From an uncultured Chitinophagales bacterium (GTDB taxonomy: Bacteria > Bacteroidota > Rhodothermia > Balneolales > DATFMH01): a stretch of DNA of 64,000 nucleotides. The notes under the pieces are model-generated. The model was not told the origin of the DNA, did no database searches, and was given only the letters and a program-made list of their open reading frames with translations. The stretch spans positions 8,170-72,169 of the forward strand of contig CAZNHE010000005.1 in the NCBI GenBank assembly GCA_964572735.1, given 5' to 3'. A program made the translations under genes and the position numbers. Positions within the stretch are counted from its first letter, which is position 1; the number at the start of each line of letters is the position of its first letter. Below, one piece after another: positions 17,904 through 58,266 of this stretch.

Positions 17904-18331
17904 GCGGGATAGAAGAAGCGGCTGGCAGTTGGCATTCGGCTGTCAGTCGGCAGACGATCGGGGAAGTTATCTTCCTGAGCTTCGGCAAGACTTGTCATAC
18001 TTCAAACCTGAGTTCGATTTTAAATCGGATTCAGCATTACCAGTGCTTTCCAGCCGGTTTCTAACGGTCCCTGAAGGGGCGGTTTGCGACCAGACCAGGG
18101 GTTAAGGCCTTGTAGAAATGGGTACGGCCCGGTGGAAAGTTTTCGCTAATTTTATCTTTGGTTAAAGCCATAATATTTGATCTAAGCCATAGTTTAACTA
18201 ACGACTTATTATGGCGAAGGCATCTAATTTTTCCGATTTTCAGGCTTCTTAAAACACCTGTTCACCTCTTTTTTCCGTATAGCTATTAATCGGACCCGGG
18301 TTAAAAATACAATACCTTTTTTCCCCTTTTT

Positions 18332-18396
18332 CCATTGCCGCCGGCTTAAGCAACCTGGATTTCCTCTTTCCTATACCCATTGCCGCCGGCTTAAGC
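18332..18396. repeat. Direct repeat CCATTGCCGCCGGCTTAAGC, two copies with a 45-nt period
   Basis: Identical 20-mers lie at 18332-18351 and 18377-18396. Each is preceded by a pyrimidine tract (TTCCCCTTTTT and TTCCTCTTTCC). Confidence 0.8.
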
Positions 18397-18524
18397 CGAC
18401 GGATATAAGATTGCCTCCAAATCGGGCTTCAGCCCATGGAAACGCCGGGCGATCATGGGCTAAAGCCCGATTTAGTGAAAGGCTTTGTAGTCCGTCAGCT
18501 AAAGCAGACGGCAAAGTTTTTTGC
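18377..18524 (+). ncRNA. Candidate structured small RNA, or a stem-loop array ending in a terminator-like hairpin with a U-tract
   Basis: Three stem-loops occur in tandem. H1 is 18383-18402 (CCGCCGGC-TTAA-GCCGaCGG). H2 is nested: the outer stem AAATCGGGC (18419-18427) pairs with GCCCGATTT (18465-18473), and the inner stem GCCCATG (18432-18438) pairs with CATGGGC (18454-18460). H3 is CCGTC (18492-18496) with GACGG (18507-18511), followed by CAAAGTTTTTTGC. No family is recognised. Confidence 0.3.
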
Positions 18525-18828
18525 TACGATCACTTTATCCCTGGCGGGATTTATGGGGAACAGATGATCCCACTCCGACAAATCCGTTTTATTTGATTGT
18601 CATTTATATTCATGCCCGTACCCGACAGTCAAATTCCCGATTATGAAATACGAGCACCATCCGGTGGATCGGAGTGAGCACGAATGCCCGGTAACGTAAA
18701 TACAGGGATCCCGGACTCACGTTACTTTAAAAGAAATTGTTTACGCGGTACGGCCAACTTCCCCTTTGATAGTACCGGTAAATTTACTTCACGATTAAAA
18801 AGGTTATAGCTTGTTAAGGGCTTTTCGT

Positions 18829-21081
18829 TCATTTTAAAGTAAAGATATCCACCACAGAAGACGTTACACTGGTACCGCTGGGATAAGTGTATCGGCTTAC
18901 GGCTCCTCCTCCGAAAAGAATTTCATTGCCGGCAGCAGCGGCGGCCAGGTTTGTCCGGTCTACGCTTAATTCCATAGTTGTCCACTCGCCGGTGCCGATA
19001 TCATATACATCTACGGTCTTTGCAGATCTGTGGGATTGAGTATCGCCGGCAACGCCTCCGCCTATCAGTATTTTATCTCCAAGACCGGTGGCTGCCAGAT
19101 TCCGTCTTGCCTGACTGAGCTGTGCCGTACTCCACGTGCCGGTGTTTACATCATAAATATCAACGGTTTTCGATGCGAAATCATTGCCACCGGTATATCC
19201 ACCCGCAAAGATGATCTTGTTTCCCGCTGCTGCGGCTGTGTGCCAGTATTTTGCTTCGCTTAAGTGCGTTGTTGTCCATGTACCGGTATTCACATCATAA
19301 ATGTCGACTATGCTTAACGGTGAGCCGATGCCTACAGCATGCCCTCCTGCAAAAACTACTTTATTCCCCGCGCCGGCAGCGCATAATTCGTATCTCGCCT
19401 GGCTCAAATGGGATACGGTCCATTGTCCGGAAGTTACATCATATATATCCACGGTATTTGAAAAACCTGAGCTGCCGTATCCTCCTCCGAAAAGAATTTT
19501 ATTGCCGGCAGCTGCGGCGGCCAGGCCTTGTCTTGCTTCGCTCAACTGAGCGGTTGCCCATTGGCCAGTACTCACATCATAAATATCTACCATATTTGAA
19601 GGGGAATCGCCATCGTATCCTCCTGCGAAAACAATTTTATTACCCGCTGCTGCGGCGGCCAGGGCGCTTCTGGCTACGCTTAAATGCCATTGCGTCCATG
19701 AATTGGTAGTCACATCATATATGTCGACTTCAGCGGAAGGCCCGGAGCCACCTGCGAAAACGATCTTGTTGCCTGCACCCGCGGCAACCAGTCCTGCTCT
19801 GGCGGGAATGGTTGCAGAACCTGTGTATTCAACCTCTCCGGCCTGTTGCTGTTTTTGTTTTATTTCAAAAATAACATCGGCGTTATCATTATGGGCGGAT
19901 TGTCCATTTATCCTTATCCATAACTGTAATGCAACGGCCCCTATTTGTTGATCATAGTTGAATTTATAATCCGGGATAACAATTTCAATTTTTGTGTTGC
20001 TCCATGATACTACTTTTGGATCCGGTTGAAGCCGGCTTACGGGAATATTTTTTGTCCATAATTCTATGGTTGCATTTTTCGTATCAGGGTTAAGATATTT
20101 CCCGGTAACAGTGACCGTATCGCCGCCGCTAAAATGATACGCTTCTTTCCCGGGACTGGTCACATTGGTGATAATGGGATCATTTTCGAAATGTGCCGGG
20201 TCGCTTTTTATCCCGTTGCTGCTTACGACAAAATCCACATCAAAGGAAGACACAAACTGATCTACGTCATTTCTCTTCAGCGCTATTTTATCACCTTCAG
20301 GTTCCTTTATATATTCATCTGTTCCCTTCCTGTAAATGGAATCTATACTTACCTGATGGTTTCCATTGACCAGTACTTTTATTGCAGCATTTTGTTGATC
20401 CAGATTAGTCACGCTAAGATAATAGGGAGAAAGTGAATCGCTTGTATGTTTATACACAACTTGAATTACAGGCTTTTGCTGATAAATATAATCCACACTA
20501 TTGGATGATTTCTCATTTACCACCACTTTAACTTTTACTTTGCCCACAGCATGCTTTGGCGGTGCAACTATCAATTTTGTAGCTGAAAAAGATTGTAGGG
20601 AAGCGGCTTTGCCGTCAAACGTTACGGTTACCTTGCTTTGGTCATCGCCAAAGTTTTTACCGGTGATGGTTACTGCATTGAGGGTATAATCCCAGCCTAC
20701 TTTTGGAGAGATGCTGATAATCTGTGGCTGATCCGGTGTTAAATAGGTAAATACCGGTCCCCCTGCCGATTTGTCCCTCACTGTTACGGTTACTTTGCCG
20801 GTAGTGCCGTCCTGCGGCGCTATAACTTCCATGCTGGTTTCCGTGGTCTTTTTTATTTGTCCGGCCCGGCCATTGAATTTTACCGTGTTTTCCGCAAGAA
20901 TGAGGCTAAACCCTTCTCCCTTGATCGTTACCGGCGTTCCGGGTTTTCCGCCGGTTGGTGATATTTCATTTACCACAAGAATATCATCGGTTTCTGTATT
21001 ATTTATTTTCCGGCATTGGGTTAGAAGTATGCAGGAAAAGAAAAGTAGAAATGATATTTTAAAAACCGATTGCTTTTTCAT
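18829..21081 (-). CDS. Secreted (possibly lipidated) protein with IPT/TIG domains and a 7-blade Kelch-type beta-propeller
   Basis: The signal peptide is MKKQSVFKISFLLFFSCILLTQC. IPT-like segments include ISPTGGKPGTPVTIKGEGFS and ISPKVGW..VTITGKNFG. Seven tandem ~45-50-aa units follow the pattern A(A)AGNKI(V/L)F(A/G)GG ... VDIYDV.TG.W. The ORF track opens at 21120, but the ATG at 21081 gives the signal peptide. Confidence 0.8.
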   Translation of the reverse strand: MKKQSVFKISFLLFFSCILLTQCRKINNTETDDILVVNEISPTGGKPGTPVTIKGEGFSLILAENTVKFNGRAGQIKKTTETSMEVIAPQDGTTGKVTVTVRDKSAGGPVFTYLTPDQPQIISISPKVGWDYTLNAVTITGKNFGDDQSKVTVTFDGKAASLQSFSATKLIVAPPKHAVGKVKVKVVVNEKSSNSVDYIYQQKPVIQVVYKHTSDSLSPYYLSVTNLDQQNAAIKVLVNGNHQVSIDSIYRKGTDEYIKEPEGDKIALKRNDVDQFVSSFDVDFVVSSNGIKSDPAHFENDPIITNVTSPGKEAYHFSGGDTVTVTGKYLNPDTKNATIELWTKNIPVSRLQPDPKVVSWSNTKIEIVIPDYKFNYDQQIGAVALQLWIRINGQSAHNDNADVIFEIKQKQQQAGEVEYTGSATIPARAGLVAAGAGNKIVFAGGSGPSAEVDIYDVTTNSWTQWHLSVARSALAAAAAGNKIVFAGGYDGDSPSNMVDIYDVSTGQWATAQLSEARQGLAAAAAGNKILFGGGYGSSGFSNTVDIYDVTSGQWTVSHLSQARYELCAAGAGNKVVFAGGHAVGIGSPLSIVDIYDVNTGTWTTTHLSEAKYWHTAAAAGNKIIFAGGYTGGNDFASKTVDIYDVNTGTWSTAQLSQARRNLAATGLGDKILIGGGVAGDTQSHRSAKTVDVYDIGTGEWTTMELSVDRTNLAAAAAGNEILFGGGAVSRYTYPSGTSVTSSVVDIFTLK

Positions 21082-21109
21082 GATTTTAATTAGCCTGGCT
21101 AAATAAACG

Positions 21110-23209
21110 CTATTGCACAATTAACGTTTTCACTTCACTTACAGCCGATTCCTTTCCGTTTTCATATATCGCCTTGATGGCATATTGAAAACTTCCCTTT
21201 CCAATAGATTCTTTATAGGTCATTTTATTTCCCGGTATATTCCCGGCCATTTTCAGCCCTGTATTATTTTTCCCCTTATATAAAATGTAATAGCTGATAT
21301 CGCCGACCGGCGCTGCCCAACTCAGAACGGCACTGCTGTCATTTTTACTCACTTCAAAATTTTTGATGACGCCGGAATAGCCTTTACTGTACACATATAC
21401 ATTCAGAGGAAATGATTTACCGGAACTTAGTCCGCTGCTGTCAAAGGCTTCAATGGAATAGGAATAATTATGCAGCGGCTTTATATCATTGTCTGTGTAG
21501 GCGGAATCAATGGCAGGTAATTCTTCTATTAACACCCATGTATTTGTACTGTCGTCTTTGCGATAAAGCTTTTGAGCGGCTACATCTTCGCTGGCGCTGC
21601 GGTACCATTGCAATGCTACACTCGTATCGCTGACATTAAAATCATGTATGATAGCAGCCATTGGCGGGATCACATCCGGTTTTGCTAATTTCAATATCTC
21701 GGAAGCAGGACTGGCGTTCCGATTGCGGTCGTAAGCTATGACTTGATAGTAAATATCTTTAGTTAGCGTTTTCACGGTTATGGAATCGGTAAAGAGGGTG
21801 TCGGGTATCAAGATTCCAAGCAGTGGTGTAAAAACCTGGCTTGGATTGTTGCTGAAGAAAATGCGGTACCCGGCAAGATCCGGTTCAACATTCCAGTTCC
21901 AATGGATATGCACTATTCCCGTTGAATCGATTTTACCGGCTAAGCCAGTAGGTTGGGCAGGAGGGGTGTGGTCTTCGGCGTTCATATACGCCGGCATGGA
22001 CCTTCCGGAATTTAAAGCGGTATCAACAGCCGCTACGATGTAATAATTGGGCGCTCCTGTCTTTGGATGTTCATCCGTGAAGTCATGGGTTTCAAAACCC
22101 AGGAGGCTGTCGGTAAGCGATTCATAGGGCCCGTCCAGGTTAACACTCCTGCCAACGACATAGCCAATGAAGTCTGCTTCCTTAACGTTTTTTTCCCAAT
22201 GAAAGGAAATTTTGGAGCCGTTGTCGGTATTTTGAATCTGGGTGATGATAGGCGGGTGAGGCGGCGTGAGGTCTCTGCCCATTCCTATGACCACATCGGA
22301 AGGTTTCGACAGATCACCAAAGGCAGAAATGCCAATTACCCGGTACCTGTATTTAACATAGTTGGCAATGGTGGTATCTATAAATTCAATGGGTTTGGGA
22401 AGTCTTCCTTGTCTTTGAGAATAGACATAAGGCAAGCGGTTCAGCCGTTTATAATTTTGCCCATCCTTCGAACGCTCAATATAAAATGCCGAATAGCGGT
22501 CGCCGGTTGGATTATTATACCAAAAGAGGTGAATAACCTGATCTCCCGCAACCGTTTTCAAAATGGGGGACGGACTTGGTTTGGTTATTAAACCTCCGTT
22601 TACAAATACCAGAGCCGTATCGGAGCGAATAATTCTTTGCGAATCTACCGGGGTTACGGCATAGGTGTAGTAATGGTCTTTGTCTATTGTGCTATCCTCA
22701 TATCTTAATCCGAGGCCTTCGGCAATTTTGGCATTGAAATCGGCAATCATCAGGGCGAAGCCAAAGCGGTTTTGCTGTTCATGGTATTTGTTTATGATGT
22801 CTTGCATAGACATCGAGCCGGCTTTAAACGGTAATGTTTCGCCATACAGCAACTCGGCGGCCATGGCGGCCAGGCTGTCGTGTGAGGCTTCAAAATACTG
22901 CTGCCACTGCTGCATGGTCCACACCGGAATGTGGACAGAGTCTTTGGCTATTTCTTTAAAATCGCCATTAGCATCTTTTTCATATACTCGGCGGGTAACC
23001 TTGTAGCCGTCTTGCTTTGTCAGAATCCATGTGGCGGCGTCACCGGGCGCCCATCGCAGTACCACTTTACTACCATAATTTTTATAAATGAGATGCATGT
23101 GGGCAAGGGTATCTGCCTTGGTCGTATCCGGTTTCGCAGGGGCATTTATATTCTGCCCGAACCCCAAGCCGGGTAAGAAGAGTACGACGAAAAACAGATA
23201 TTTTATCAT
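21110..23209 (-). CDS. Secreted multi-domain protein with FN3-like repeats, function unknown
   Basis: The 699-aa ORF has the signal peptide MIKYLFFVVLFLPGLGFGQ and repeated FN3-like strand patterns (V.L.W, YR..A.D..GN.S..S, e.g. YYQVIAYDRNRNASPAS and YSYSIEAFDSSGLSSG). Confidence 0.65.
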   Translation of the reverse strand: MIKYLFFVVLFLPGLGFGQNINAPAKPDTTKADTLAHMHLIYKNYGSKVVLRWAPGDAATWILTKQDGYKVTRRVYEKDANGDFKEIAKDSVHIPVWTMQQWQQYFEASHDSLAAMAAELLYGETLPFKAGSMSMQDIINKYHEQQNRFGFALMIADFNAKIAEGLGLRYEDSTIDKDHYYTYAVTPVDSQRIIRSDTALVFVNGGLITKPSPSPILKTVAGDQVIHLFWYNNPTGDRYSAFYIERSKDGQNYKRLNRLPYVYSQRQGRLPKPIEFIDTTIANYVKYRYRVIGISAFGDLSKPSDVVIGMGRDLTPPHPPIITQIQNTDNGSKISFHWEKNVKEADFIGYVVGRSVNLDGPYESLTDSLLGFETHDFTDEHPKTGAPNYYIVAAVDTALNSGRSMPAYMNAEDHTPPAQPTGLAGKIDSTGIVHIHWNWNVEPDLAGYRIFFSNNPSQVFTPLLGILIPDTLFTDSITVKTLTKDIYYQVIAYDRNRNASPASEILKLAKPDVIPPMAAIIHDFNVSDTSVALQWYRSASEDVAAQKLYRKDDSTNTWVLIEELPAIDSAYTDNDIKPLHNYSYSIEAFDSSGLSSGKSFPLNVYVYSKGYSGVIKNFEVSKNDSSAVLSWAAPVGDISYYILYKGKNNTGLKMAGNIPGNKMTYKESIGKGSFQYAIKAIYENGKESAVSEVKTLIVQ

Positions 23210-23219
23210 GGTATTAATT

Positions 23220-23939
23220 TTATCTATTTCTGTATATGGTAATGGTTCGGCTAATGGGTAAATTTTGAATTTTATTAAAATCGATGAACCCTATCAGCAC
23301 TTTATAACCGCCTGAAAGCTCCGCGCTGGTATGTGCCGGTGCTATGGGTACATCGGTTATGGGATCGATGAAGCGAAAATCAGCCTTTATACTCGGCGGT
23401 TTGTGCAAACTTAAAGTCAAATCTCCGTTGTATTTCCCTATGTATATTTGATCCAGCATGCCCTGCATTTCATTGATTTTATATTCATAATATTTAACAC
23501 GTCTTTGATATTCTTTGGCCAAATCGTAATTATAATTTGCAAGAGCATTGGCAGAGAAATCTGTATAATCATCTTTCATTTTTTGATAAAAAGGTATTTG
23601 CCTTTCCAGTGCGTATTCCAAAACATCGATGTCTTTATTAGCTCTTAATGGGATGGCATAATCTACTGTCATATCCTTGTTTGCGGCTAAAATAGCATAC
23701 GCTTCAGCCTTTTTTAAGTTTTCTTTGGCTGATGCCGAAACATAAGTAGCGTTGCCTGAAGCTTTCATATTGGAGATTGCATTGCCCTTTCGGGTTTTAG
23801 TTACTGTTTGTTTGACGATTACATTTCTTGGCACGGCATTCATTACACTGTTCATCATACTTGCTGTAAACCTGATTTGTGCCATTGCGGTAGTCGTTAT
23901 GAAACATGTTATAAAAATTAAAAAGATACGTTTCATCAT
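23220..23939 (-). CDS. Secreted 239-aa protein, function unknown
   Basis: The signal peptide is MMKRIFLIFITCFITTTAMAQ. The ATG immediately follows the stop of the upstream giant gene (TAAATG). Confidence 0.6.
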   Translation of the reverse strand: MMKRIFLIFITCFITTTAMAQIRFTASMMNSVMNAVPRNVIVKQTVTKTRKGNAISNMKASGNATYVSASAKENLKKAEAYAILAANKDMTVDYAIPLRANKDIDVLEYALERQIPFYQKMKDDYTDFSANALANYNYDLAKEYQRRVKYYEYKINEMQGMLDQIYIGKYNGDLTLSLHKPPSIKADFRFIDPITDVPIAPAHTSAELSGGYKVLIGFIDFNKIQNLPISRTITIYRNR

Positions 23940-26900
23940 TTAATTGTTTACTTGATTGAATTTTGTGGCTGTGTTTACCATTTGTGAACGCTTAACTACC
24001 TTAAACCCCGATACATTTATTCCATTGATATAAGTAGGTTCGGCGGCTTTTATTTCCTTTGCAGTGAGTGGCTGATCGACGTCTTCAATGAATACAGGCC
24101 GCTGCGGAACACAATACCTGCCAAAGCTTACAGTACACCCAATCCCTTCTAATTGTAGTTCTCTCGGTGATAGGCCCTTCTCGATGCGGGCTTTATCCAA
24201 GTCTATATTCGCATCATCAAATTTTTTATATACCAGGGGTACCGCCTGTTCTTTCATCCATTTGTTTAAATCATTATTCTCTTTCAGGACTACCAAAGGC
24301 ATGGTATAGAACATGATTTCTTTATTGATATAATTGTCACTGGTGAAGCCTTTTACATCATACGTATCAAACCGCTCTGCTACTTTTAATTGAGAACCCG
24401 CGCCAAAGAAGTGATAAAGTACTTTATCAAAGCGAGCCCCGGCCATTTTATCCGCCAATGTATTATAACGGCTGGTTTTGAAATGATAGGAGTATAAAAC
24501 AACATCCAGGTTTTTATTACCGAGCGTTGCTTTATGGTTACTTGTATTAAAGGACTTATTTATATAGGCTGAATTTTTTTTATTATCAAAAGCCTGATAA
24601 TACTGGCTGCCTACTTTCATGGTATTACTGCCTTCCGTGTGAATGGCTCTATTGAGCCTGCTGGCCAAAGCAGGTGAAATATTATAAACGATGTAATCAT
24701 CCAATTTGGAGAATTGTGTACGCTTGATGATCTCAACCCTGATAATCGTCTCGTTGGGCAGTTTGGGTATATCAAAGTACAGATATTGGCCTGCTCCCTC
24801 AGTTATTGGACTTTCATAACCTGGTAATTCCTTGCCACCTTTAACCGGTGTGAATCGCGCAAAAAGCTTATATTTTTCTTTAACATTACGCAGACATCCA
24901 TAAGCTTTGTCCAGTATAATAGCGCCCCTTTTAGATTCACCCTGTAAAAAATAACGCTGATTGGGGAAGGGGTAAGCTCCAAGCCGATTGCGGGAGTCAG
25001 AAATTATCTGGTCCGGTTTGCATGCTCCTGTTTTAAAGGTTGAGGTAGAATCGCCAATTACGGGCTGCCCATTTTTATCTATAGCAGGAGTCCAACTATC
25101 TGTATAATGTGCCACAAAATTGGGTCCAATTGCTATCTTACTTTGCATAGCCTTCACCTTGATGTGCGTACGGTAATTAGTTTGGCCTTTAAGCGCATCG
25201 ATTGTCAATAGAGTGAGGTCATGATGATTATCATCGAAAGCGGGATGGCTGTCTTTGTCGCGGTAATCAGCGTAAACGGTATTATCATCAGTATTAGTTA
25301 TCGTTAAGTCATCAATTTCTATTTTAAATCGCCATGGCCTGTGGAAATTGGGGTCGATCAATTCAAACGGTTTTTCAATAGGATAGTTGAAGACGAATTC
25401 AGGATATGCATTTAAGGGTACTTCGGTTTTTCCATTGTTGGGTTTGACCTCTTGAATAAGCGGTAACGTAAATGCGCTTTTTTGTACTACGCACGCTTTT
25501 CCAATGGCTACTTTAAAGCCAATATTACCCTCAATCAGTCCATTTAACACTTCATAATGGGTATTGGTATATCCTTTAAGCCACATAGGGTTTGGAAGGC
25601 CGGCCTGGACCAGTATATCCGCCCGCAATCTTAAAGCAGTAAGTTTACAATCGTGGCAGAAAAACATATCCACATAAAGCCCAAAAGCACCTTCAAGCCC
25701 GGCATAAGCCTGTCCCAAGGCATACCAGCCATTAAATCCCCCCGCCTTTTCGCCATCAGCACAGGTTACCGCAGATTGAAGCGCGACGTCAAAACCAAGA
25801 CCGGCTTTGGCCTCAAAAAAGAAAACCAAAAACCTGAGGTCGTAGCTAAATTTAGCCGATGCCCCCATGACAACACCACCTTTAGAACTCATATGGAGTT
25901 TTTGGTAACCGGGCAGTTCCCCCACGTTTACAATACCGGGATCGGGTTCCGGCAAAGAAGAATTTATTTTATTGCCGGCCATGAAGTAGGCTTTCAGTTT
26001 TAGGTCCAGGATATGGAGAGGATCCTGCATAGAAAGGTGTATGCGTCTGCCATAGTCATTAGGGCCGGGGAGCGGCCGCGGATTTCCAATTTTTATATAA
26101 TAGTTTTGGTTTTTGGCATCGGCCAGTAACGCGAAATTTCCGCCTCCTTTAAACCAGCCAAGGTAATTTATGTCCACGGCAGCATTAATTGAAAAAACCT
26201 TGTCAGATACACCGATCAACCAGTCCACATCCGCTTTTACGGGCGCATTATCGTCAGCTTCTAATACATCACTTCCGCTGATTTTAAATAATTGAATGTA
26301 GGCATTGCCGTTTAGCGATTGAAGCGAAAAGCCACCCGCTACATTAAATGTAGCACCCAGTGTTCCGATACCTGTAAATAGGGTCCCATCCGAACTGCTT
26401 ATGCCCACCATTAATTTCATGCCAAAAGAACCTGGACGTGGCTGATATTTATCCAGCCTGTATTTGCTGCGGTTGGCAAAATAATCTTCCGGTTTCATGC
26501 TCTTCAGAACCGTTGGCGCCAGGTTATAATATGCCCCGCCGCCAAGCCCTTGCAGCGAAATGCCGGGGCCAATAGGAACGGGTTCGGGCAGAGTGCCGTA
26601 GGCGTCAAAATACCAGTAGTTGTTACCGCTTTTATTGCCAAACATCGCATGGCAATCTACCGAGGCGCCCGGCAGCCCGGCGAACGAGGCATGAAGTATG
26701 CCACGAATGCCGTCGCCGTAGGCTGGGTCGTCTCTCATAAAATCAATTTCACCCTTATCTATTTGAACAATACCCGCGAGGTTGCCGGAAACCTTAACCT
26801 TATTTATGTTGAAATCGGTTCGCTTCCAAATAGGCCGGTCGCCGCCCAACACGTTGGCTGATAAAACAAGAGTCGTGGTAGCATCGGGCAGCAGTTTGCT

Positions 26901-29546
26901 GTTGATGTCGCTCAGTGTTAACCCCAAATCAAATTGTAACCCAACATTGTTTCCAACCATTGTTGGACGCACATCTGTAATGCTTACCGGAAAGCCTGCA
27001 ATGGAATGTTGGGGTGAAGAGAAGGAGAAGCCGGTCGATATATTTCCCACCCTCACATACGGTTCTTCTGAACGTACTACAAGATTTTCTACTTTGATTA
27101 GATCTAACCCAATTTTATACCCTTCTATATTGCCTTCAATATTTAACTTTCCCGAAAGCGCGGCTGATGCTGCTGTATTACCTGTTTCGGTATTGTTGGT
27201 TACCTCAATGGCTATATTATTGAGGTCGATGTGTGCCCACCAGGCAGAAAAATCAATATCATTCTTTTGTTTGGCAATGAATTGATATTTGACATCACCG
27301 CCATTTGCTGAAGAAGAGAGAGTAGAGGAGTAGGCGATACGGCTTTGTACTTTATTTTTATCCGAAAATGGAAGTATTATCTGCCCGTACAGACCGCCTT
27401 CTTTAAAGGATGAATTCAACAGCTTGATGTTGATCCTATCTACCGAGCAATACCAGCCGCCCACTGAGCCGTCACCGATGTTTACAATATTTTGGGCGGC
27501 AACCACACCGGTTAAACCGGCTTTGTCTAAAATGAGGTTGGCAGCGCTTATTTCAAGCTTATTATCGGGCCGGCGCGTATTTTTTACGATAGAGGGAAGC
27601 GCAACAGTCACTTTTGGAATGAAAAAACCTGTCCATAAGGCATTTCCGATGACTGGATTCTTTCCGGCTAATGCCGCATCATTAAACGATGAAGGCATGC
27701 CTGTCGGGTTTTTCAAGGTGGAATGATCGTAATACGCATTCCCATTTAAAGTAAAAACAACATTTTTTAGAGAAGGCACTATAAAAGGATCCATAGCCAC
27801 TGAAGCCGTCCAGCTGCTCCAGCTTTTGATGTCTGCGTCCAGGATGGCTTTTTCGGGAGAACCGTTGGCCTGGGTAATTTGTGAAGCCGGAAAGTTATAT
27901 TCGGCATGAATGTGAAACTTCTTCAGCTTGTTTTTGGAATAGAGAACATAGGTACCTGGCTTTGTTTTCGACTGATAGCTTTTAAAATTCAGGTTAAGGC
28001 CCGGTACATTAAAGTCTTTATTCAAAACAAATAACGCATTGCCGCACATGCAGGTAGCATTGCTGAAACACACGTCCTTTGCCGTCATTGAGAGCACCTG
28101 GTTTGCATCCGCAAGTTGCACGGCAGCCACCGCATTATACGTGGCTTGTGAAGGTGTAATATTCAGACTTACAACGGCAGCATTCACCCCGTCGGGTGTT
28201 CCCGCGGCATGTAAACCGAAAGGCAGCATAAAGCCTGCGCCGTTTTTAATCGCATCCAGGTTGTAATTCCTTATGCGATCTATGAATGATTTGTAATTGG
28301 CTGTAGAAACGGAAGGAGAGCCGCCATTAGTCAAAAAATCGAACCCATTAGCTTTTTTGGCTACGGCACGTCCCGCAATGGCAATTCCGCTTTTATTGAC
28401 TACAACTTCGGTAAAAGTAACCTGCACCGGCACGTTGTTCATCATTATGGTGCCGTCGCCGGAAACGGTACCTCCATTGTTGTTCAGGCTGCCTATTTTT
28501 ATCGGGAGCGTGGCCATGCTAAAGCTGCCGCCGGCTTTGAGTGCGGCGTTATTATTGATTTGATCGAGGGAGGCAACATCCACAGCACAGGAGCAATTTC
28601 CTTGTTCAACTATCGGGAGCTTTCCGGAGACGGCTACAGCTTTTTGGGTTTCACCATACTGAAAGATCCTAATCTGGCTTCTGCCGTTATTCTCAAAGGC
28701 CGTTTTGCCGGTAAGGTCTCTTGCCTGCACCATCAGGGCATATTGGCTTCCTTCATCCAGTTGAAAAGTAGTGAGGTTTGTAAACTGAAAATTATTAATG
28801 GGAATATTGGATTGTTTCAAAAATATTCCCGCGCCGTATTGTACCGCATTATTGAGTGATACATACGGATTTTCGTCGGGTAAAACCTTTACCAGGTACA
28901 GATCATACACCAGCGAAGCGCCCTGCATATTCCCCACGGGCCGTGTCCAGCTAATATTCATATTCTGATTGGGAGTCGGCAGGATCTTATCACCGGGTAA
29001 CGGATTGAGGATCTGCGGCGGACTTACATAACCTACGTTGTAAGCAAAGCACCCTCCAGGTCCCTGAGGATCACTGACAGGAAAATAATTGCCGTTGGCA
29101 TCCCGCGTATAGGCGTAAATGCAAAAAGTATAAAAGCCCTCCGGTATCATGCCAAACTGGAAAAGATTACTGTAAGATTTATCATCCAGATTGGTCTGAA
29201 GATTATTGAGGTTCAGATAATTTTCATCCAGCTGATTGCCCTGAACCACCACGGTTTGCAGGCCCGGTACATGAATGGGAATATTGGAAAAAACATTAGG
29301 CGCCGTCTGTATATATTGCCCACGGTCATTGTCAAGCCGCCCCCTGATATAAACATCCCTCGCAATCTGTGAATGATTGGTAAATGAAATGATCGGCTTG
29401 TATTTATAATCGGAAATGTAAGCGGAATAAGGCGGCGCGAGCTGTACCTGCAACGTAATGGGATAATTGTTCTGCCCAAATGATTTATTTATAAAACCAA
29501 ATAGAAGCGGTATTAGAAATACTATTTGAAATATTCTTTTTGTCAT
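23940..29546 (-). CDS. Giant (1868 aa) secreted protein of unknown function
   Basis: An uninterrupted ORF has the signal peptide MTKRIFQIVFLIPLLFGFINKSFGQ. The N-terminal region has Ig/FN3-like patterns (ISWTRPVG..YDLYLVKV). I recognised no catalytic, RTX, RHS/YD or T9SS C-terminal-domain motif. Confidence 0.7.
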   Translation of the reverse strand: MTKRIFQIVFLIPLLFGFINKSFGQNNYPITLQVQLAPPYSAYISDYKYKPIISFTNHSQIARDVYIRGRLDNDRGQYIQTAPNVFSNIPIHVPGLQTVVVQGNQLDENYLNLNNLQTNLDDKSYSNLFQFGMIPEGFYTFCIYAYTRDANGNYFPVSDPQGPGGCFAYNVGYVSPPQILNPLPGDKILPTPNQNMNISWTRPVGNMQGASLVYDLYLVKVLPDENPYVSLNNAVQYGAGIFLKQSNIPINNFQFTNLTTFQLDEGSQYALMVQARDLTGKTAFENNGRSQIRIFQYGETQKAVAVSGKLPIVEQGNCSCAVDVASLDQINNNAALKAGGSFSMATLPIKIGSLNNNGGTVSGDGTIMMNNVPVQVTFTEVVVNKSGIAIAGRAVAKKANGFDFLTNGGSPSVSTANYKSFIDRIRNYNLDAIKNGAGFMLPFGLHAAGTPDGVNAAVVSLNITPSQATYNAVAAVQLADANQVLSMTAKDVCFSNATCMCGNALFVLNKDFNVPGLNLNFKSYQSKTKPGTYVLYSKNKLKKFHIHAEYNFPASQITQANGSPEKAILDADIKSWSSWTASVAMDPFIVPSLKNVVFTLNGNAYYDHSTLKNPTGMPSSFNDAALAGKNPVIGNALWTGFFIPKVTVALPSIVKNTRRPDNKLEISAANLILDKAGLTGVVAAQNIVNIGDGSVGGWYCSVDRINIKLLNSSFKEGGLYGQIILPFSDKNKVQSRIAYSSTLSSSANGGDVKYQFIAKQKNDIDFSAWWAHIDLNNIAIEVTNNTETGNTAASAALSGKLNIEGNIEGYKIGLDLIKVENLVVRSEEPYVRVGNISTGFSFSSPQHSIAGFPVSITDVRPTMVGNNVGLQFDLGLTLSDINSKLLPDATTTLVLSANVLGGDRPIWKRTDFNINKVKVSGNLAGIVQIDKGEIDFMRDDPAYGDGIRGILHASFAGLPGASVDCHAMFGNKSGNNYWYFDAYGTLPEPVPIGPGISLQGLGGGAYYNLAPTVLKSMKPEDYFANRSKYRLDKYQPRPGSFGMKLMVGISSSDGTLFTGIGTLGATFNVAGGFSLQSLNGNAYIQLFKISGSDVLEADDNAPVKADVDWLIGVSDKVFSINAAVDINYLGWFKGGGNFALLADAKNQNYYIKIGNPRPLPGPNDYGRRIHLSMQDPLHILDLKLKAYFMAGNKINSSLPEPDPGIVNVGELPGYQKLHMSSKGGVVMGASAKFSYDLRFLVFFFEAKAGLGFDVALQSAVTCADGEKAGGFNGWYALGQAYAGLEGAFGLYVDMFFCHDCKLTALRLRADILVQAGLPNPMWLKGYTNTHYEVLNGLIEGNIGFKVAIGKACVVQKSAFTLPLIQEVKPNNGKTEVPLNAYPEFVFNYPIEKPFELIDPNFHRPWRFKIEIDDLTITNTDDNTVYADYRDKDSHPAFDDNHHDLTLLTIDALKGQTNYRTHIKVKAMQSKIAIGPNFVAHYTDSWTPAIDKNGQPVIGDSTSTFKTGACKPDQIISDSRNRLGAYPFPNQRYFLQGESKRGAIILDKAYGCLRNVKEKYKLFARFTPVKGGKELPGYESPITEGAGQYLYFDIPKLPNETIIRVEIIKRTQFSKLDDYIVYNISPALASRLNRAIHTEGSNTMKVGSQYYQAFDNKKNSAYINKSFNTSNHKATLGNKNLDVVLYSYHFKTSRYNTLADKMAGARFDKVLYHFFGAGSQLKVAERFDTYDVKGFTSDNYINKEIMFYTMPLVVLKENNDLNKWMKEQAVPLVYKKFDDANIDLDKARIEKGLSPRELQLEGIGCTVSFGRYCVPQRPVFIEDVDQPLTAKEIKAAEPTYINGINVSGFKVVKRSQMVNTATKFNQVNN

Positions 29547-29554
29547 CCGCTTCT

Positions 29555-31306
29555 TTAAAATGAGTAATTGTAACGTGCTGAGACCATCATTTGCCTGCGC
29601 GATGGATTTATGATCGTATTTTTATTTTTTGTTGCGGTATAATTCGCATTTAGCTGCAATGAATGCCGTTTCAGGAATATGACGTTTATACCGGGGTTTG
29701 CCGAAATCGTATGGGCGGTGGCATGGTTGTTCAACCTGTTTGAAAAATAGCCGCCAAAGAGGGAGAGCGTAACGGAGGTTATAAAATGCTTTTCGATTGA
29801 TGCATCAGGCAACAGGCTTTTGCTGATACCGAGATTGTATCCTATTGTAGCGGTTTTATTGCCGGTAAGTGCAGTGTTAAAATAATTCAGTGTGTTGGTG
29901 ATGCTGATCTTTTTCTCGGGAAAAATAAGCGTATAGATCAGACTGCCCATGGTGGAAGTGAAATCCTGGCTGCTTTGCGCCTGGTTGTTGTTCTTTAACC
30001 CCTGAAGGCTAACCTGCATGCTGATGGAATGTTGAATGGTCTTTTTATTGATGAATAAATGCGGCGAAATAGATATAGATTGGTTCACCTGGCTGATGCG
30101 TACCGAATCGTAGCGTGCGTAAGTCGCCGGGTCCTGAAGTCGCGGGATGATCTGCTGCGAAATGCCATAGTTGGAATATTGAAGACCAATGCCAAAGGCC
30201 TGCGATGGTATAAAATTTATGCTGATGTTTCCAATGGTTCTTTCGGTATTGCTGACCGCGGTTTTAGCCAGGTTATTTTTCTGAAACCCGAGGTCGGATT
30301 GCAGATGCAGCTTATTTTCAAGTAATGAAAGGTCAAAACCGGCAGTGTATTGTGCTATATCCGTCTGCATATAGAAGGCGCCCATGGATTTATAATCGGG
30401 ACCCACTCTGCGGTATTTCAGACGAATATTTCCTTTACTAAAACGATACCGGATACCCGCTTCTCCGGCAAACGCAATCCGCGAGCTTGTTTTAGGTGAA
30501 AATGAGGCAAACTTCGACCATTTCTCGTCCGTTTCCAGTAAGTCGCCTCCAACATTCCTGGTATAATAGCTCGCCGCGGCATCTATGTTAAAAGAGACGG
30601 CTTTCAACAACGTGGCCTGTCCTTTGATACCTGCTACCTGATTGGCTGCAGGCTTTAACTGCACATTTTCCGGGTTGATGCCCTGGATAGAAGTGCTGTC
30701 GTCTTTAGCCTGCAGATAAGAAAATTCGATGAAGTTTTTGGAAGATCCATAGCCTATTTTCGCGGCAAAGCCCTTGCGTTTGTATAAAGGGATATTGTTG
30801 TTCAGGTTATTATATTGTGAGATATTTGTAACCGCATCATTGAATTTCCCATATATGAAGGCCGCCCTGAATTTGCCAGGAGTAAGTTCAAAACCGGCAC
30901 CCAGTATCTGCTGGCCGCTTAATGTAAATTGGGAAAAATTCAGAGAGCGCCAGCCAAGGTGCAGCTTCGCCCATTTGTAATGAGGACTCATGCCAAACCG
31001 GTTGAAGGAACGCGTACTGATACTTCTGCTCTGGCTGGCAACCATGATATTTACCGGAATAGAAAACCCATACAGCGAAAGCACCGGATTGCCCTGAATA
31101 AAATAGGAGGGTGAATGGCCAAATGAAGAATGAGATAAATTGCCATTTCCATTGGAAAGGTCGCTGTAATAATTTAGCCCTGAGGAAATGCTGCCGTGAA
31201 AAGTGATCAATTTCCGATTTTTCAGATGTGCCAGGTCCTGGGAGTGAACGGCAATTACACAAGTGGAACTAAATAAACAGCTTAATATGAATATTTTTTT
31301 GCGCAT
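29555..31306 (-). CDS. Outer-membrane beta-barrel protein (583 aa) with no POTRA or plug domain recognised
   Basis: The signal peptide is MRKKIFILSCLFSSTCVIAVHSQ. Alternating hydrophobic/polar beta-strand patterning runs from about residue 30 to the end, and the C-terminus is ARYNYSF (terminal aromatic). The gene lies 8 nt upstream of the giant gene. Confidence 0.65.
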   Translation of the reverse strand: MRKKIFILSCLFSSTCVIAVHSQDLAHLKNRKLITFHGSISSGLNYYSDLSNGNGNLSHSSFGHSPSYFIQGNPVLSLYGFSIPVNIMVASQSRSISTRSFNRFGMSPHYKWAKLHLGWRSLNFSQFTLSGQQILGAGFELTPGKFRAAFIYGKFNDAVTNISQYNNLNNNIPLYKRKGFAAKIGYGSSKNFIEFSYLQAKDDSTSIQGINPENVQLKPAANQVAGIKGQATLLKAVSFNIDAAASYYTRNVGGDLLETDEKWSKFASFSPKTSSRIAFAGEAGIRYRFSKGNIRLKYRRVGPDYKSMGAFYMQTDIAQYTAGFDLSLLENKLHLQSDLGFQKNNLAKTAVSNTERTIGNISINFIPSQAFGIGLQYSNYGISQQIIPRLQDPATYARYDSVRISQVNQSISISPHLFINKKTIQHSISMQVSLQGLKNNNQAQSSQDFTSTMGSLIYTLIFPEKKISITNTLNYFNTALTGNKTATIGYNLGISKSLLPDASIEKHFITSVTLSLFGGYFSNRLNNHATAHTISANPGINVIFLKRHSLQLNANYTATKNKNTIINPSRRQMMVSARYNYSF

Positions 31307-31345
31307 CCCAGCTCTATATTGGCACTAAGGCTTATTTTTCAAATT

Positions 31346-31361
31346 TTGAGCATTTGCTCAA
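31346..31361. promoter_or_regulatory. Inverted repeat TTGAGCA-TT-TGCTCAA in the island operon promoter region; candidate operator
   Basis: The 7-bp arms lie 40-55 nt upstream of the ATG at 31306. On the minus strand the repeat sits between a TTG and AAAATTTG, resembling the Bacteroidetes -33/-7 promoter elements (TTG/TAnnTTTG). A direct repeat AATTTCAACT also occurs at 31360-31369 and 31388-31397. Confidence 0.3.
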
Positions 31362-31562
31362 TTTCAACTCACTGTGTACTCCACGGTAATTTCAACTATT
31401 TCCATAGCCGGTGTGTTTAATACGGCTATTTTTTATATCACCATCAATCGATTCTAACAGCTGAAATTTTATTGGTGATAAAGAAGCGTTGCCTGTTTCT
31501 ATTGCAGGTTTATTATCAAATAATCCGGTATTTGTCGTTATTTCCTATTATATCAATCACAT

Positions 31563-32063
31563 TTATTGCTTTAATAAAACCCTGAAAAATCCATTGGTCA
31601 CTTCCATCGTTTCATCAGACTTATAGGGACTTGCGGTAAAATGAAAGGTCCCCTCTATCACTTTATCATTGGCTTTGGTAAGTACATATTCTCCCATTTT
31701 TGCCTTCAAGAGATTGCCATTTCCAAAATCCAGATCGGCGCCCGTCATTTTGAGGTGTTTTCCAACCTTGATAAATGTCCGGTAAATGTAGAACGCGATC
31801 CGTATTTCTCCATTCGAACCTTGAATAAAGTGCGTGTTGGATTTATTGATTTCCATCATATTAGATGCTTCCCATGGTTTGCCGTCAACGACCGCCCTCA
31901 TGGTATAACCCTTTGAGGAAGTGACTACTTCCGGCGGTGCATACTTTTTCATGGCTTTCTGAATGGCGTTTGCCGTTTTTTGTGCCTTCTTGTGGGCAGG
32001 ATTTTGACAGGCCGCGGGAAATACGCACACGAATAAGAATAAGAGATAAAATAGAGGTTTCAT
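31563..32063 (-). CDS. Small secreted or lipoprotein-like protein (166 aa), function unknown
   Basis: The signal peptide is MKPLFYLLFLFVCVFPAAC, with a Cys at the likely cleavage site. The coding sequence is AT-rich and lies inside the island. Confidence 0.55.
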   Translation of the reverse strand: MKPLFYLLFLFVCVFPAACQNPAHKKAQKTANAIQKAMKKYAPPEVVTSSKGYTMRAVVDGKPWEASNMMEINKSNTHFIQGSNGEIRIAFYIYRTFIKVGKHLKMTGADLDFGNGNLLKAKMGEYVLTKANDKVIEGTFHFTASPYKSDETMEVTNGFFRVLLKQ

Positions 32064-32367
32064 GATGAGTGAGATTTAAATGATTGTTTCTTTTAGATTC
32101 GTTGGCAATCTAATTCTTGTCCGGCCTCAGTTCGGGACGGCCTATCCATTTCCCTTTTTTATTATGGTTTCGACGGCCCGGAACCATGAGAGCACAAGCC
32201 GGTTCTTTTGTAGTTCTCATTGAATAACCATTCCTATAAATCCGGAATGAGGTTGTTTTCCTCACTGACTCCATTGTATCCCGGCCAGGAATAAAGTATC
32301 AGCCGCCGGCTCTCCGGCATAGTATAAAAGCGACTTCCTGTAGTAAAAAAACGACAGAAAGGCGGCG

Positions 32368-33192
32368 CTAAAAAGCGAAGTGATAAGGGTTAAACGAAGA
32401 CGGAGTTGTGTCCAGGAATTGTTTGAACTCTCTGACGAGATGCATCTGGTCGAAATAACCTGCATCACAGGCTACAGCAGCCCACTTGGCATCTGTGGAT
32501 CGCATTCTCATCTCCAGCATGTTCTTAAACCGGAGCATACGCGCATATACTTTCGGACTTACCCCCACCTCCTTTGAAAAGTTCCTCTCAAATTGCCTCA
32601 TTGACAGGTTGCTCGCATCCGCAAGCTTTGTAATGGAAATATTACCGCGGTGCCGCACGAGATAATCAGCGGCCTTGTTGGTAGATGAACGCCTGCTTAA
32701 GTGCCCCCGGGAAAGCCGGATTAAATAAGGTTCTGCGATATCGATACACTCCCTGATGTTGCGGGCATATAGCAGCCGTTGGGCGAGCTCGTGAAACAGC
32801 GGATGAATACCGGCTGCGGGAACCGCTTCATTTGTAAATTCAGAGACAGGAATGCCCAACAAACGGTATAGCCCTGCGGGACGAAACTTTACGGTAAAAG
32901 AGATAAACAGGTTGTTTATCCGGATGGAATACTTTTTGAAGGTACGCGGCCCCCGGATGGTGCAGCGCTCGAAAGGAACGGACCAGCCGGTGGCATCATC
33001 AAAAGTGGCAAAATGGTCACCCAGGAAAAAATCAATGGAACTCACTTCCCTGAGCGGCATGGCCTTGCTAATATCATGTCCGGCAGGAGGCATAATGTAG
33101 CGGTACACATACTGATTGATGAACGGCTGTAGTGCCGGATGCGGAGTTTTATGGATCTTCAGGTTGTTGGGTGAAAGAAAAGTACCACTCAT
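32368..33192 (-). CDS. AraC/XylS-family transcriptional regulator
   Basis: The C-terminal double HTH includes ITKLADASNLSMRQFERNFSKEVGVSPKVYARMLRF and ACDAGYFDQMHLVREFKQF. The ORF track opens at 33312, but the ATG at 33192 (MSGTFLSP) is the more likely start. Confidence 0.8.
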   Translation of the reverse strand: MSGTFLSPNNLKIHKTPHPALQPFINQYVYRYIMPPAGHDISKAMPLREVSSIDFFLGDHFATFDDATGWSVPFERCTIRGPRTFKKYSIRINNLFISFTVKFRPAGLYRLLGIPVSEFTNEAVPAAGIHPLFHELAQRLLYARNIRECIDIAEPYLIRLSRGHLSRRSSTNKAADYLVRHRGNISITKLADASNLSMRQFERNFSKEVGVSPKVYARMLRFKNMLEMRMRSTDAKWAAVACDAGYFDQMHLVREFKQFLDTTPSSFNPYHFAF

Positions 33193-33662
33193 GGCCCCTC
33201 CTTCTTTACAAATAACTTTGCCGAAGAAAAGACAGTCATAATATCCTCGCAGTAAAAAATGATAGTAATAAGTATCCGGAGTTAAAGGGAGTAACCCAAT
33301 AGTAAATAACAAAAAAGCCGTAAAAATAACAACCCATGAATCGGACAGATCTATAGCCGGGTTTATTGTCAGCCTCTGAAAAAGTTCCGATTGTCATCCT
33401 GCCATCGACGGACTGCCAGCTAAACCGATAAGCTGTTTCCAACAGGTAATTGGCTGCCGGCGGTATAAAAAGGGATGAGGTATCAGCAAAGACCAATGAT
33501 GTCCGATTAACGATCCTTTATTTTCAGTCCCTCTATTCATGTCCCCTTACTTTTTAATATCCCCGCCTTTCAATACCTTTAGCATTGCATTTAATGTTTA
33601 TGCGCATAATATTTCAGCCCGAATCAAATCATTTTTTCAATTCCAAATAATCAACCAAGTTC

Positions 33663-34001
33663 ATGGCTTATATTGTAACGGAACCGTGCATCAACTGTAA
33701 ATACACCGATTGTTCGGCTGTCTGCCCGGTGGATGCTTTTCGCGAAGGTCCCAATTTTCTGACTATCGATCCGGACGATTGCATCGACTGCGATGCGTGT
33801 GTCTCCGAATGTCCGGTGGATGCCATTTATGCCGACGATGAGGTTCCTGAAAAATGGGAACATTATATCGATTGGAATGCCCGGCTTGCCGAAAACTGGC
33901 AGGATCGTATCATCAACGAGGCCAAGGATCCCCTTCCGGATGCCGATAAATGGGCTGAGGTTGAAGAAAAGGAAGATAAATTACAGGAAGACTGGGATTA
34001 A
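33663..34001 (+). CDS. fdxA: 7Fe-type ferredoxin (Azotobacter FdxA-like)
   Basis: The sequence [54 protein letters not shown] shows the classic CxxCxxxxCxxxCP plus CxxCxxCxxxCP pattern. Confidence 0.9.
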
Positions 34002-48727: not shown

Positions 48728-48775
48728 CTGAAGATTAGCTGGGTTACATTCATCAAATGGGGTAATATAATCCAA

Positions 48776-58259: not shown

Positions 58260-58266
58260 TGAAGGT

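Follow-up and report, generated by a model that had tools for sequence, protein, structure and literature searches.

TANFOR-domain proteins (TIGR02542, T_forsyth_147) have been proposed to act in Bacteroidetes as polymorphic toxins (Jana, Salomon & Bosis 2020, Life Sci Alliance, PMC7073777), and here we set beside them a giant protein of 1868 amino acids (aa), encoded at 23940-29546 on the minus strand of a 64,000-nucleotide stretch of DNA from an uncultured Chitinophagales bacterium (assembly GCA_964572735.1, contig CAZNHE010000005.1, positions 8,170 to 72,169 of the forward strand; hereafter the window). The published survey counts 339 TANFOR proteins, nearly all from Bacteroidetes and about 87% of them with a Sec signal, in which an N-terminal TANFOR domain (at about residues 28-160) and FN3 (at about 300-390) precede variable C-terminal toxins, with immunity genes downstream; many of the C-termini are listed as 'Unknown' (PMC7073777). 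Their neighbourhoods are enriched in SprB repeats, FN3 (COG3401), PKD and type IX secretion system (T9SS) C-terminal domains (CTDs), and the authors hypothesised that the T9SS is the export route (PMC7073777). In the table of that survey, many TANFOR genes are directly preceded by a gene for an unannotated signal-peptide protein of 528-593 aa, and COG3401 FN3 proteins of 629-670 aa are listed downstream, neither of which the paper comments on (PMC7073777), and we found no later papers on TANFOR export in the literature searched.

Much of this description fits the giant, which is likewise a large Bacteroidota protein that starts with a Sec signal and then has a TANFOR-type domain and FN3. It has a multi-FN3 (COG3401) neighbour, SprB-repeat proteins accompany its relatives, and a signal-peptide protein of about 530-590 aa is encoded directly upstream. 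Unlike the published toxins, however, the giant has a divergent TANFOR domain (E 0.11), no C-terminal toxin and no recognisable immunity gene, and its body is a conserved core of about 1450 aa that is not described in PMC7073777. Because this core also exists without TANFOR, it looks more like machinery than like cargo. TANFOR giants are already published as a domain class, within which the giant represents a variant that has diverged, lacks a toxin and is fused to another unit. No description seems to exist of the core family, of the barrel that partners it or of the four-part cassette in which they occur.

The giant proves to be a single-chain fusion of a carrier module (aa 27-400) and the core, which are separate proteins in many other Bacteroidota, and it belongs to a conserved cassette made up of a predicted outer-membrane barrel of about 570 aa, a TANFOR-bearing gene, a core giant and a multi-FN3 protein of about 700 aa. 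In the window, the giant is the second of five tightly packed genes on the same strand:

29555-31306, minus strand: partner gene, a predicted outer-membrane beta-barrel of 583 aa from an unnamed family, its stop 8 nt before the ATG of the giant
23940-29546, minus strand: the giant, 1868 aa and a stop codon, in which the conserved core follows a TANFOR-FN3-five-strand module in one chain (open reading frame and translation)
23220-23939, minus strand: small secreted protein of 239 aa, its ATG right after the TAA of the giant (TAAATG junction), apparently a fast-evolving accessory gene
21110-23209, minus strand: multi-FN3 partner of 699 aa with a signal peptide (Pfam fn3 E 2e-11, three stretches)
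18829-21120, minus strand: three IPT/TIG domains and a Kelch beta-propeller, the last cassette gene, likely start ATG at 21081 (Pfam TIG E 2e-26, Kelch_1 E 4e-36)

We called open reading frames (ORFs) in 90 loci and searched them with hidden Markov models (HMMs) built for the barrel, the N-terminal module (N-module), the core and the FN3 partner. The barrel lies directly upstream of 43 of the 48 genes with an N-terminal TANFOR-type module, and a homologous FN3 protein of about 650-730 aa lies within 1.5 kb downstream of nearly all core giants (67/69). The first four cassette genes recur around homologues of the giant in Puia and other metagenome-assembled genomes. Moreover, the triad of barrel, giant and FN3 protein recurs in Pedobacter and others around a second giant family with the same N-module (family B, as opposed to family A, the giant's own). 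The 699-aa protein is the counterpart of the COG3401 FN3 proteins that the survey found enriched near TANFOR genes (PMC7073777). The place of the TIG-Kelch gene is variable elsewhere, being taken by TIG-NHL, SprB-repeat or cellulase genes. A gene of 170-244 aa occupies the position of the 239-aa gene in about 16 related loci; phmmer with the 239-aa protein found nothing, and alignment shows a common signal peptide and a C-terminal TKxIYxK motif. No immunity family in Pfam or NCBIfam matches this protein, which belongs to a weakly conserved family and resembles a secreted accessory subunit more than it does an immunity protein.

From a signal peptide and a C-terminal aromatic beta-signal we infer that the 583-aa partner is an outer-membrane beta-barrel: a signal peptide ending in Gln is found in 40 of 40 aligned family members, and the beta-signal (e.g. 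...RYNYSF) in most of them. Its homologues fill at least 288 clusters in a limited search, none with a Pfam domain. The protein itself matches no NCBIfam model at E<=1, and so none of the PorV/PorQ/PorP models NF033709, NF033710 and NF033711, and it carries no POTRA, PorV/PorP or Omp85 signature. Two members of the family from Tenacibaculum and Flavobacteriaceae (L070:3-1832 and L083:3-2018) match the barrel HMM to its last position and then continue for about 260 residues, so Flavobacteriaceae barrels may carry a C-terminal extension. At another locus (L004:8270-10037, plus strand), which precedes the core giant P0033 (1482 aa), gene calling splits the barrel into a 329-aa and a 272-aa product matching the N- and C-terminal halves of the profile; the split may reflect a frameshift, an assembly error or a pseudogene.

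Along its length, the giant divides into the following parts:

29475-29546, minus strand: Sec-type signal peptide, aa 1-24, read from the sequence as MTKRIFQIVFLIPLLFGFINKSFG followed by QNNYP, with a predicted cleavage that leaves an N-terminal Gln
29022-29468, minus strand: divergent TANFOR-like beta-sandwich, aa ~27-175 (TIGR02542 alignment, homologue matches, hhalign)
28653-29021, minus strand: FN3-like domain, aa ~176-298 (weak Pfam fn3, beta-sandwich in the model, Foldseek)
28347-28652, minus strand: disordered linker with CSC motif and five-strand 'b5' domain (linker aa 299-312, b5 aa 313-400; model, HMM)
25503-28346, minus strand: core beta-meander, aa ~401-1348, about 50 predicted antiparallel strands (AlphaFold2 models, Foldseek)
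23943-25502, minus strand: conserved C-terminal region, predicted beta-sandwich domains at aa ~1364-1611 and an alpha/beta region at aa ~1612-1868 (model, HMM, alignment A7)

Core proteins come in two classes. Those of the first, to which the giant belongs, measure 1760-2500 aa, combine N-module and core, and lie directly downstream of the barrel. Those of the second measure about 1450-1630 aa, lack the N-module and begin at about aa 400-425 of the giant; their loci open with the barrel and a TANFOR-FN3 protein of 750-2070 aa that is encoded on its own, after which come small genes, the core giant, the FN3 protein and an SprB-repeat protein of about 1500 aa. This order of core, FN3 and SprB genes may be related to the sprCDBF gliding operon. 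An HMM of b5 (aa ~300-410 of the giant) matches 12 detached TANFOR-type proteins in such split loci and one truncated giant (E 1e-10 to 1e-17); the detached proteins consist of the N-module and the five-strand domain, followed by a variable tail. Since the detached TANFOR proteins carry b5, the last part that they have in common with the giant, and the N-less cores begin at aa 400-425, the giant is an exact end-to-end fusion of a TANFOR carrier and a core.

In split loci, including two published TANFOR loci, the detached module stands directly after the barrel and is either fused to a toxin or followed by one. For example, the locus of Chitinophaga agrisoli BN140078 (L058; row 276 of Supplemental Data 1, PMC7073777), which encodes the TANFOR protein WP_149839882.1, continues with a TNT toxin gene (PF14021, E 8e-25), a core giant, an FN3 protein and an SprB-repeat protein. 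Marivirga sericea (L063) is row 315 of the same table, and in the loci of both rows a core-family member lies a few kb downstream of the TANFOR gene. Two further observations concern the cargo of split loci. In Chitinophaga niastensis, a NADAR protein (L086:6895-7848, plus strand; PF08719, E 4e-51) is encoded between the core giant and a 960-aa gene next to the one for the detached TANFOR protein. The TNT toxin domain of the sister locus L058 is encoded at the position of this 960-aa gene, and the NADAR protein is plausibly an immunity or antidote gene for a toxin that targets NAD (nicotinamide adenine dinucleotide). Furthermore, residues ~750-885 of the detached TANFOR proteins of L052, L070 and L083 give weak metzincin- or archaemetzincin-like matches (E 0.005-0.04), and these tails of Tenacibaculum-type and related Flavobacteriaceae proteins may be protease-type effector domains.

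The N-terminal module of the giant is, to judge from sequence comparison, a divergent form of the TANFOR-FN3 unit, a published delivery-type domain (PMC7073777). When TIGR02542 is compared with the N-terminal 320 aa, residues 29-143 are collinear with model positions 3-123 of 145; the full-length giant gives no match to this model at E<=10. Relatives match it more clearly (7/19 members of family A, best E 1.2e-6; 8/14 members of family B, best E 1.4e-11), against E values of about 1e-8 to 1e-20 by RPS-BLAST for the TANFOR proteins accepted in the literature. In the reverse direction, an HMM of the giant's N-module matches the published TANFOR proteins WP_149839882.1 (L058:1662-3902, E 5e-29) and WP_085515242.1 (L063:2339-6775, E 1e-31). 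The layout agrees as well, with a domain of about 147 residues right after the signal peptide and then FN3.

Family B extends the argument to giants with other bodies. Its members (2030-2590 aa, rich in CarboxypepD_reg domains) have N-modules 56-83% identical to that of the window, above the full-length identity of the giant's orthologues (41-59%), and hhalign of family A (alignment A1) with family B (A4) finds only the N-terminal ~290 aa in common (probability 100, E 1e-74). A greedy local hhalign run gives a faint sign of remote kinship between the core and the C-terminal ~900 aa of family B (probability 79%, E 1.7e-5, 16% identity), which we treat as unproven. Compared with the window, the family-B loci L006 and L007 show 57-58% identity in the barrel, 60% in the N-module and no clear core homology; for the Puia orthologue the values are 53% (barrel) and 63% (N-module). 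Identity correlations among barrel, N-module and core are all about 0.93-0.96, which reflects phylogeny and does not discriminate partners. In two family-B giants, P0022 and P0023 (2531-2589 aa), the N-module is 80-83% identical to aa 1-298 of the giant, topping the 63-76% seen at loci of its own orthologues, and their partner barrels (P0048, P0046, encoded on contigs equal in length to theirs) are also the closest to the window barrel (74-76%). Among close relatives, the two giant families may therefore have exchanged modules or be recent paralogues.

Two AlphaFold2 models built on 28-sequence alignments, each spanning part of the meander only, cover aa 1-1200 (m2f5a58f889ae) and aa 670-1868 (mb97c4263cc4c), with mean predicted local distance difference test (pLDDT) values of 79 and 76. 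The signal-peptide region is of low pLDDT, with a helix at aa 5-18, and the partner barrel family shows the same A/G-Q pattern at the end of its signal peptide. The N-terminal ~300 aa are modelled as two beta-sandwich domains (pLDDT ~80-90), which Foldseek matches to FN3 and Ig domains of IGF1R and factor XIII; Pfam fn3 matches aa 193-281 weakly (E 0.028). After the linker (pLDDT <50 at aa 300-311) come the strands of b5 at aa 341-396 and a short helical segment, and then the meander, a predicted series of consecutive antiparallel hairpins with many amphipathic strands 12-21 residues long. Its family-wide invariant residues include G1002-G1004, G1251-F1252-D1253, C1262 and W1274, with C1352 just beyond; the CSC motif at aa 318-320 is present in the family consensus. 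For both models the top Foldseek matches in the PDB are large outer-membrane barrels, namely LptD (E 3e-6), FimD/PapC, Occ porins, BamA, PgaA and MOMP, with ApoB100 and the membrane attack complex at lower ranks. The meander could be either a very large membrane-embedded barrel or a periplasmic or surface beta-sheet scaffold. The C-terminal region has no PDB or Pfam match, and model confidence is lower over its alpha/beta part. Of 89 core-family ORFs, 81 are recognised by an HMM of aa 1400-1868, N-less ones among them, and the C-terminus of the giant is therefore not polymorphic.

An earlier note on this DNA, made from the sequence alone, had anticipated much of this anatomy: Ig/FN3-like modules in the N-terminal ~300 aa, a beta-rich, Gly/Asn-rich body (Gly 8.6%, Asn 8.3%, almost wholly beta to aa ~1611) and scattered Cys pairs. 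The structure prediction and Foldseek comparison that it proposed gave the all-beta meander and the LptD/usher/porin matches, with template modelling (TM) scores of 0.1-0.3. It was also right in seeing no repeat periodicity, as self-BLAST returned only the identity alignment and no Pfam repeat family matched; an adhesin with RTX-type, cadherin-type or BIg repeats was rejected on these grounds. Equally, no enzymatic or toxin family in Pfam or NCBIfam matched the giant, as the note had seen no enzymatic motif. A TamB/AsmA-like bridge protein was rejected too, for want of a TamB/DUF490 or AsmA Pfam domain and also because of the N-terminus, where a cleavable signal is followed by Ig-like domains. 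Its word 'secreted' holds in part: the Sec-type signal peptide is evident, and the final site may be the periplasm, the outer membrane, the surface or the medium.

The same note called the giant an orphan, and this did not survive. A core profile (aa 312-1400, 1089 aa; alignment A6), run exhaustively against 1.84 billion cluster representatives, recruits 2797 representatives of clusters at 50% identity with E<=1e-3, 1961 of them at E<=1e-30. Word-indexed homologue searches, including one with a profile query, had suggested a tiny family of about 30 clusters, which the exhaustive HMM search overturned. In a scan of one genome per GTDB species, core relatives occupy at least 525 loci, spanning Chitinophagales, Cytophagales, Flavobacteriales (Tenacibaculum, Aquimarina), Sphingobacteriales, Bacteroidales, Saprospiraceae and Ignavibacteriota/Kapaibacteria. 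The giant's family, for which no name exists, is very large and consists of all-beta envelope proteins from Bacteroidota. Source records label its members 'hypothetical protein', and those scanned carry no Pfam or NCBIfam family except fn3 and weak TANFOR matches. The giant itself has no significant match in Pfam, NCBIfam, PHROGs or PDB sequences, fn3 being the only one noted, and the five cassette proteins together yield only fn3, TIG and Kelch in these libraries; profiles made for the barrel, for the core and for the C-terminal region likewise drew no match from PDB sequences. No curated family covers the giant, as the note had held, and no characterised family matches it over most of its length because its large family is itself uncharacterised. 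The HMM search that the note had suggested, which included 'TANFOR'-type giants of Bacteroidota, gave the key lead to the divergent N-terminal module. Some core-family members are much longer, such as P0171 (5511 aa), P0200 (3698 aa), P0213 (4237 aa) and P0307 (3572 aa); in P0171, P0200 and P0213 six separate stretches each match the core profile, and some of these overlong proteins may carry duplicated cores or large insertions.

Other systems that pair a barrel with a large beta-rich protein share part of this organisation. In two-partner secretion and contact-dependent inhibition (CDI) systems (TpsB/CdiB with TpsA/CdiA), as in the cassette, a barrel gene of about 570-580 aa adjoins that of a giant Sec-exported beta-rich protein, and an N-terminal region of about 300 aa is conserved among otherwise different giants (families A and B, up to 83% identity). 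In the giant's relatives this N-module carries polymorphic toxins with immunity genes after them, again as in CDI. Unlike in two-partner secretion, the giant has no TPS domain (PF05860; fil_hemag_20aa at E 0.061 is not significant), the barrel has no POTRA or ShlB domain (PF08479/PF03865), the body is a predicted antiparallel meander rather than a parallel beta-helix, and there are two further partners, the core and the FN3 protein. The cassette may thus resemble two-partner secretion, CDI and 'specialised effector' fusions in its working only, while failing family membership. SprA-PorV and PorP/SprF of the T9SS are, like the cassette, specific to Bacteroidota and combine a giant all-beta protein with a smaller barrel, and PorP/SprF with type-B CTD cargo likewise places a dedicated barrel gene beside the cargo, with SprB-repeat genes nearby; in contrast, the 583-aa barrel has no sequence relation to PorV, PorQ or PorP, no cassette protein has a CTD, and SprA is not among the top fold matches of the giant. 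The best structural matches, LptD and the ushers FimD and PapC (Foldseek E to 3e-6), are echoed by an usher-like domain order of soluble beta domains, large meander and C-terminal beta-sandwiches, yet the TM-scores are only 0.1-0.25, there is no sequence similarity, and the giant has about twice as many strands. The LptD_2 Pfam model (PF19838) matches another gene of the window, a Bacteroidota-type LptD at 55533-58424 on the minus strand (E 3e-119), and not the giant, to which that gene is not related.

We somewhat favour a reading in which the giant serves as the large, conserved subunit of an outer-membrane apparatus, as yet uncharacterised, that exports or displays TANFOR proteins. The barrel, the core giant and the FN3 protein would form the apparatus, associated with the outer membrane, and the TANFOR-FN3-five-strand module would dock a polypeptide onto it. 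The barrel would be the most likely direct partner of the module, because the two are adjacent (43/48 loci) and similarly conserved whatever body is attached. In split loci the same module would load toxins onto the apparatus, an idea modelled on two-partner secretion and on those 'specialised' effectors that are joined to a structural subunit; in the window organism it would be built into the core subunit, so that the locus would encode an apparatus without detachable toxin cargo. Apparatus and docking are argued from the barrel preceding the module, from the similarity of barrel and N-module independently of the body, and from the Rosetta-stone logic of the fusion.

Several points weigh against this reading. 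The argument that links the four proteins is built from synteny, fusion and analogy. The window N-terminus matches TIGR02542 at only E 0.11 (12.4 bits), and every homologue scores below the curated cutoff of 67 bits. The pairing of barrel and TANFOR is not exclusive, as the barrel also stands directly upstream of some N-less giants (L004, L054, L082, L090), and in some Flavobacteriaceae rows of the published table a PKD lipoprotein, not a barrel, directly precedes TANFOR (PMC7073777). More than 95% of TANFOR genomes encode a T9SS (PMC7073777), and export through it by an unrecognised signal is possible. Finally, the fold matches are weak (TM-score 0.1-0.3, root-mean-square deviation >15 Å), and barrel closure and a hydrophobic belt are putative, each model covering only part of the meander.

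Among the alternatives, a chance ORF or a decaying pseudogene has a probability close to nil. The ORF, with an ATG start and 1868 uninterrupted codons, is the longest of the window, as the earlier note had remarked without giving its minus strand, and in sequence that the note had called AT-rich and that is moderately so (44% GC at the gene against about 50% for the window), a stop-free run of this length has a probability of about 6e-49 from local base frequencies. A second assembly encodes an identical protein, and 21 full-length homologues at 41-59% identity (alignments covering 97-100% of the query) indicate that the ORF is under selection; with thousands of relatives that keep its motifs and synteny, these conservation data already refute the chance or pseudogene explanation, for which we found no point in favour. 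The giant is a genuine gene, as the note had argued. That it is itself a toxin of the published TANFOR class, its C-terminal ~250 aa being an unrecognised toxin and the 239-aa gene its immunity protein, would fit the published architecture of N-terminal TANFOR-type module and FN3, the many TANFOR proteins with 'Unknown' C-termini (PMC7073777) and the small, very fast-evolving gene placed immediately after it at TAAATG. But the C-terminal HMM that reaches 81 of 89 members includes proteins of about 1500 aa without TANFOR, the homologues align over nearly the whole query, and neither toxin nor immunity families of Pfam or NCBIfam are matched. Moreover, a signal peptide and a C-terminal motif that is conserved make the 239-aa protein look like one of an accessory family and less like the product of a swapped immunity gene, and the toxins of split loci attach to or follow the detached TANFOR protein rather than the core. 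We rejected the toxin reading, which we hold to be very unlikely, because the C-terminus is conserved family-wide.

Export by the T9SS enters through a different alternative, in which the giant would be a large surface adhesin or matrix protein that leaves by this or another general route through an unrecognised signal, the barrel being an unrelated porin-like gene or a mere anchor. The T9SS is present in this genome, as a genuine PorQ gene indicates (47750-48775, minus strand; NF033711 T9SS_PorQ at 272.5 bits against a cutoff of 220, no Pfam match); the earlier note had recognised it as PorQ-like. The adhesin explanation also draws on the signal peptide, Ig-like domains and disulfide-type conserved cysteines of the giant, on neighbours with adhesin-type domains (FN3, TIG, Kelch, SprB), on the T9SS found in more than 95% of TANFOR genomes and on the enrichment of SprB and CTD proteins nearby (PMC7073777). 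However, neither the type A (TIGR04183/PF18962) nor the type B (TIGR04131) T9SS CTD gives a match at E<=1 in the giant or the four other cassette proteins in Pfam and NCBIfam, so that a cryptic CTD was rejected; the note had found the C-terminus unlike both types and had proposed this profile check. The linkage to the barrel is too tight and too wide for chance (43/48 loci, 8-nt spacing, kept across orders and even in Ignavibacteriota), and the body has neither adhesin-type repeats nor beta-helix matches, so we regard an adhesin as unlikely. The models allow a further reading, which we consider doubtful, that the giant is the translocon itself: the ~50-strand meander would close into an outer-membrane barrel larger than the 36-strand SprA, flanked by sandwich domains as in ushers, with the 583-aa barrel in an accessory role as its shuttle or anchor, much like PorV for SprA. 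Large outer-membrane barrels are indeed the exclusive best PDB fold matches of both models, the consecutive hairpins have strands of 12-21 residues, many with short-turn/long-loop alternation and one hydrophobic face, and the order of sandwich domains, barrel and sandwich domains is usher-like. Against a translocon, TM-scores stay at 0.1-0.3 with SprA absent from the top 50 matches, the giant ends in ...KFNQVNN, which is no C-terminal beta-signal, several predicted hairpins are fully polar (e.g. aa 906-940), and barrel closure is putative because neither model contains the whole meander.

The export or display apparatus that we favour can be taken further. The barrel, the core and the FN3 protein could constitute a previously unrecognised secretion or display system of Bacteroidota and relatives in the Fibrobacterota-Chlorobiota-Bacteroidota (FCB) group, with the TANFOR-FN3-five-strand module as targeting or loading signal, which would export TANFOR toxins in place of the T9SS and of which the giant would be a 'self-loaded' fused form; we offer this as a tentative possibility. 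In that case the meander, with its ~50 strands, could exceed every single-chain outer-membrane barrel seen so far. In hundreds of species TANFOR modules co-occur with a dedicated barrel, a huge conserved all-beta protein and a multi-FN3 protein, which provides a concrete candidate for the TANFOR export route, and in the window organism part of this set is physically fused to the TANFOR module. Culturable carriers include Chitinophaga pinensis, C. agrisoli, Marivirga sericea and Leadbetterella byssophila, and strains of these genera have known toxin-immunity pairs; in C. pinensis DSM 2588, a 581-aa protein is encoded upstream of the deaminase toxin WP_012790431.1, whose immunity is of the SUKH type. 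Additionally, two large families have neither a Pfam or NCBIfam model nor a solved relative, the core (at least 2797 clusters) and the barrel (at least 288), and defining them would make it possible to annotate better the thousands of giants now labelled 'hypothetical' in Bacteroidota from soil, the sea and the gut.

The surroundings of the cassette offer some minor observations. A scan for sigma-70 promoters and terminators gave counts equal to the shuffled expectation, Bacteroidota promoters lying outside the models of that scan. GC content is 42-47% over the cassette and its immediate flanks (18000-34000), against about 48-55% in the rest of the window, which could reflect horizontal acquisition or merely Asn/Lys/Ile-rich beta proteins. 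At 15285-17903 on the plus strand, convergent with the end of the cassette, lies a TonB-dependent receptor gene with a CarboxypepD_reg N-terminal domain, which like the LptD gene has no connection with the giant; the two confirm a diderm Bacteroidota envelope context. Upstream of the cassette and on its strand (31563-33312, minus) are a DUF6252 lipoprotein-like gene and an AraC-family regulator (HTH_18 and DUF6597); at that position four other loci (L001, L006, L008, L010) encode Y_Y_Y-HisKA_3 sensor kinases with LuxR or LytTR regulators, which hints at dedicated regulation of the cassette.

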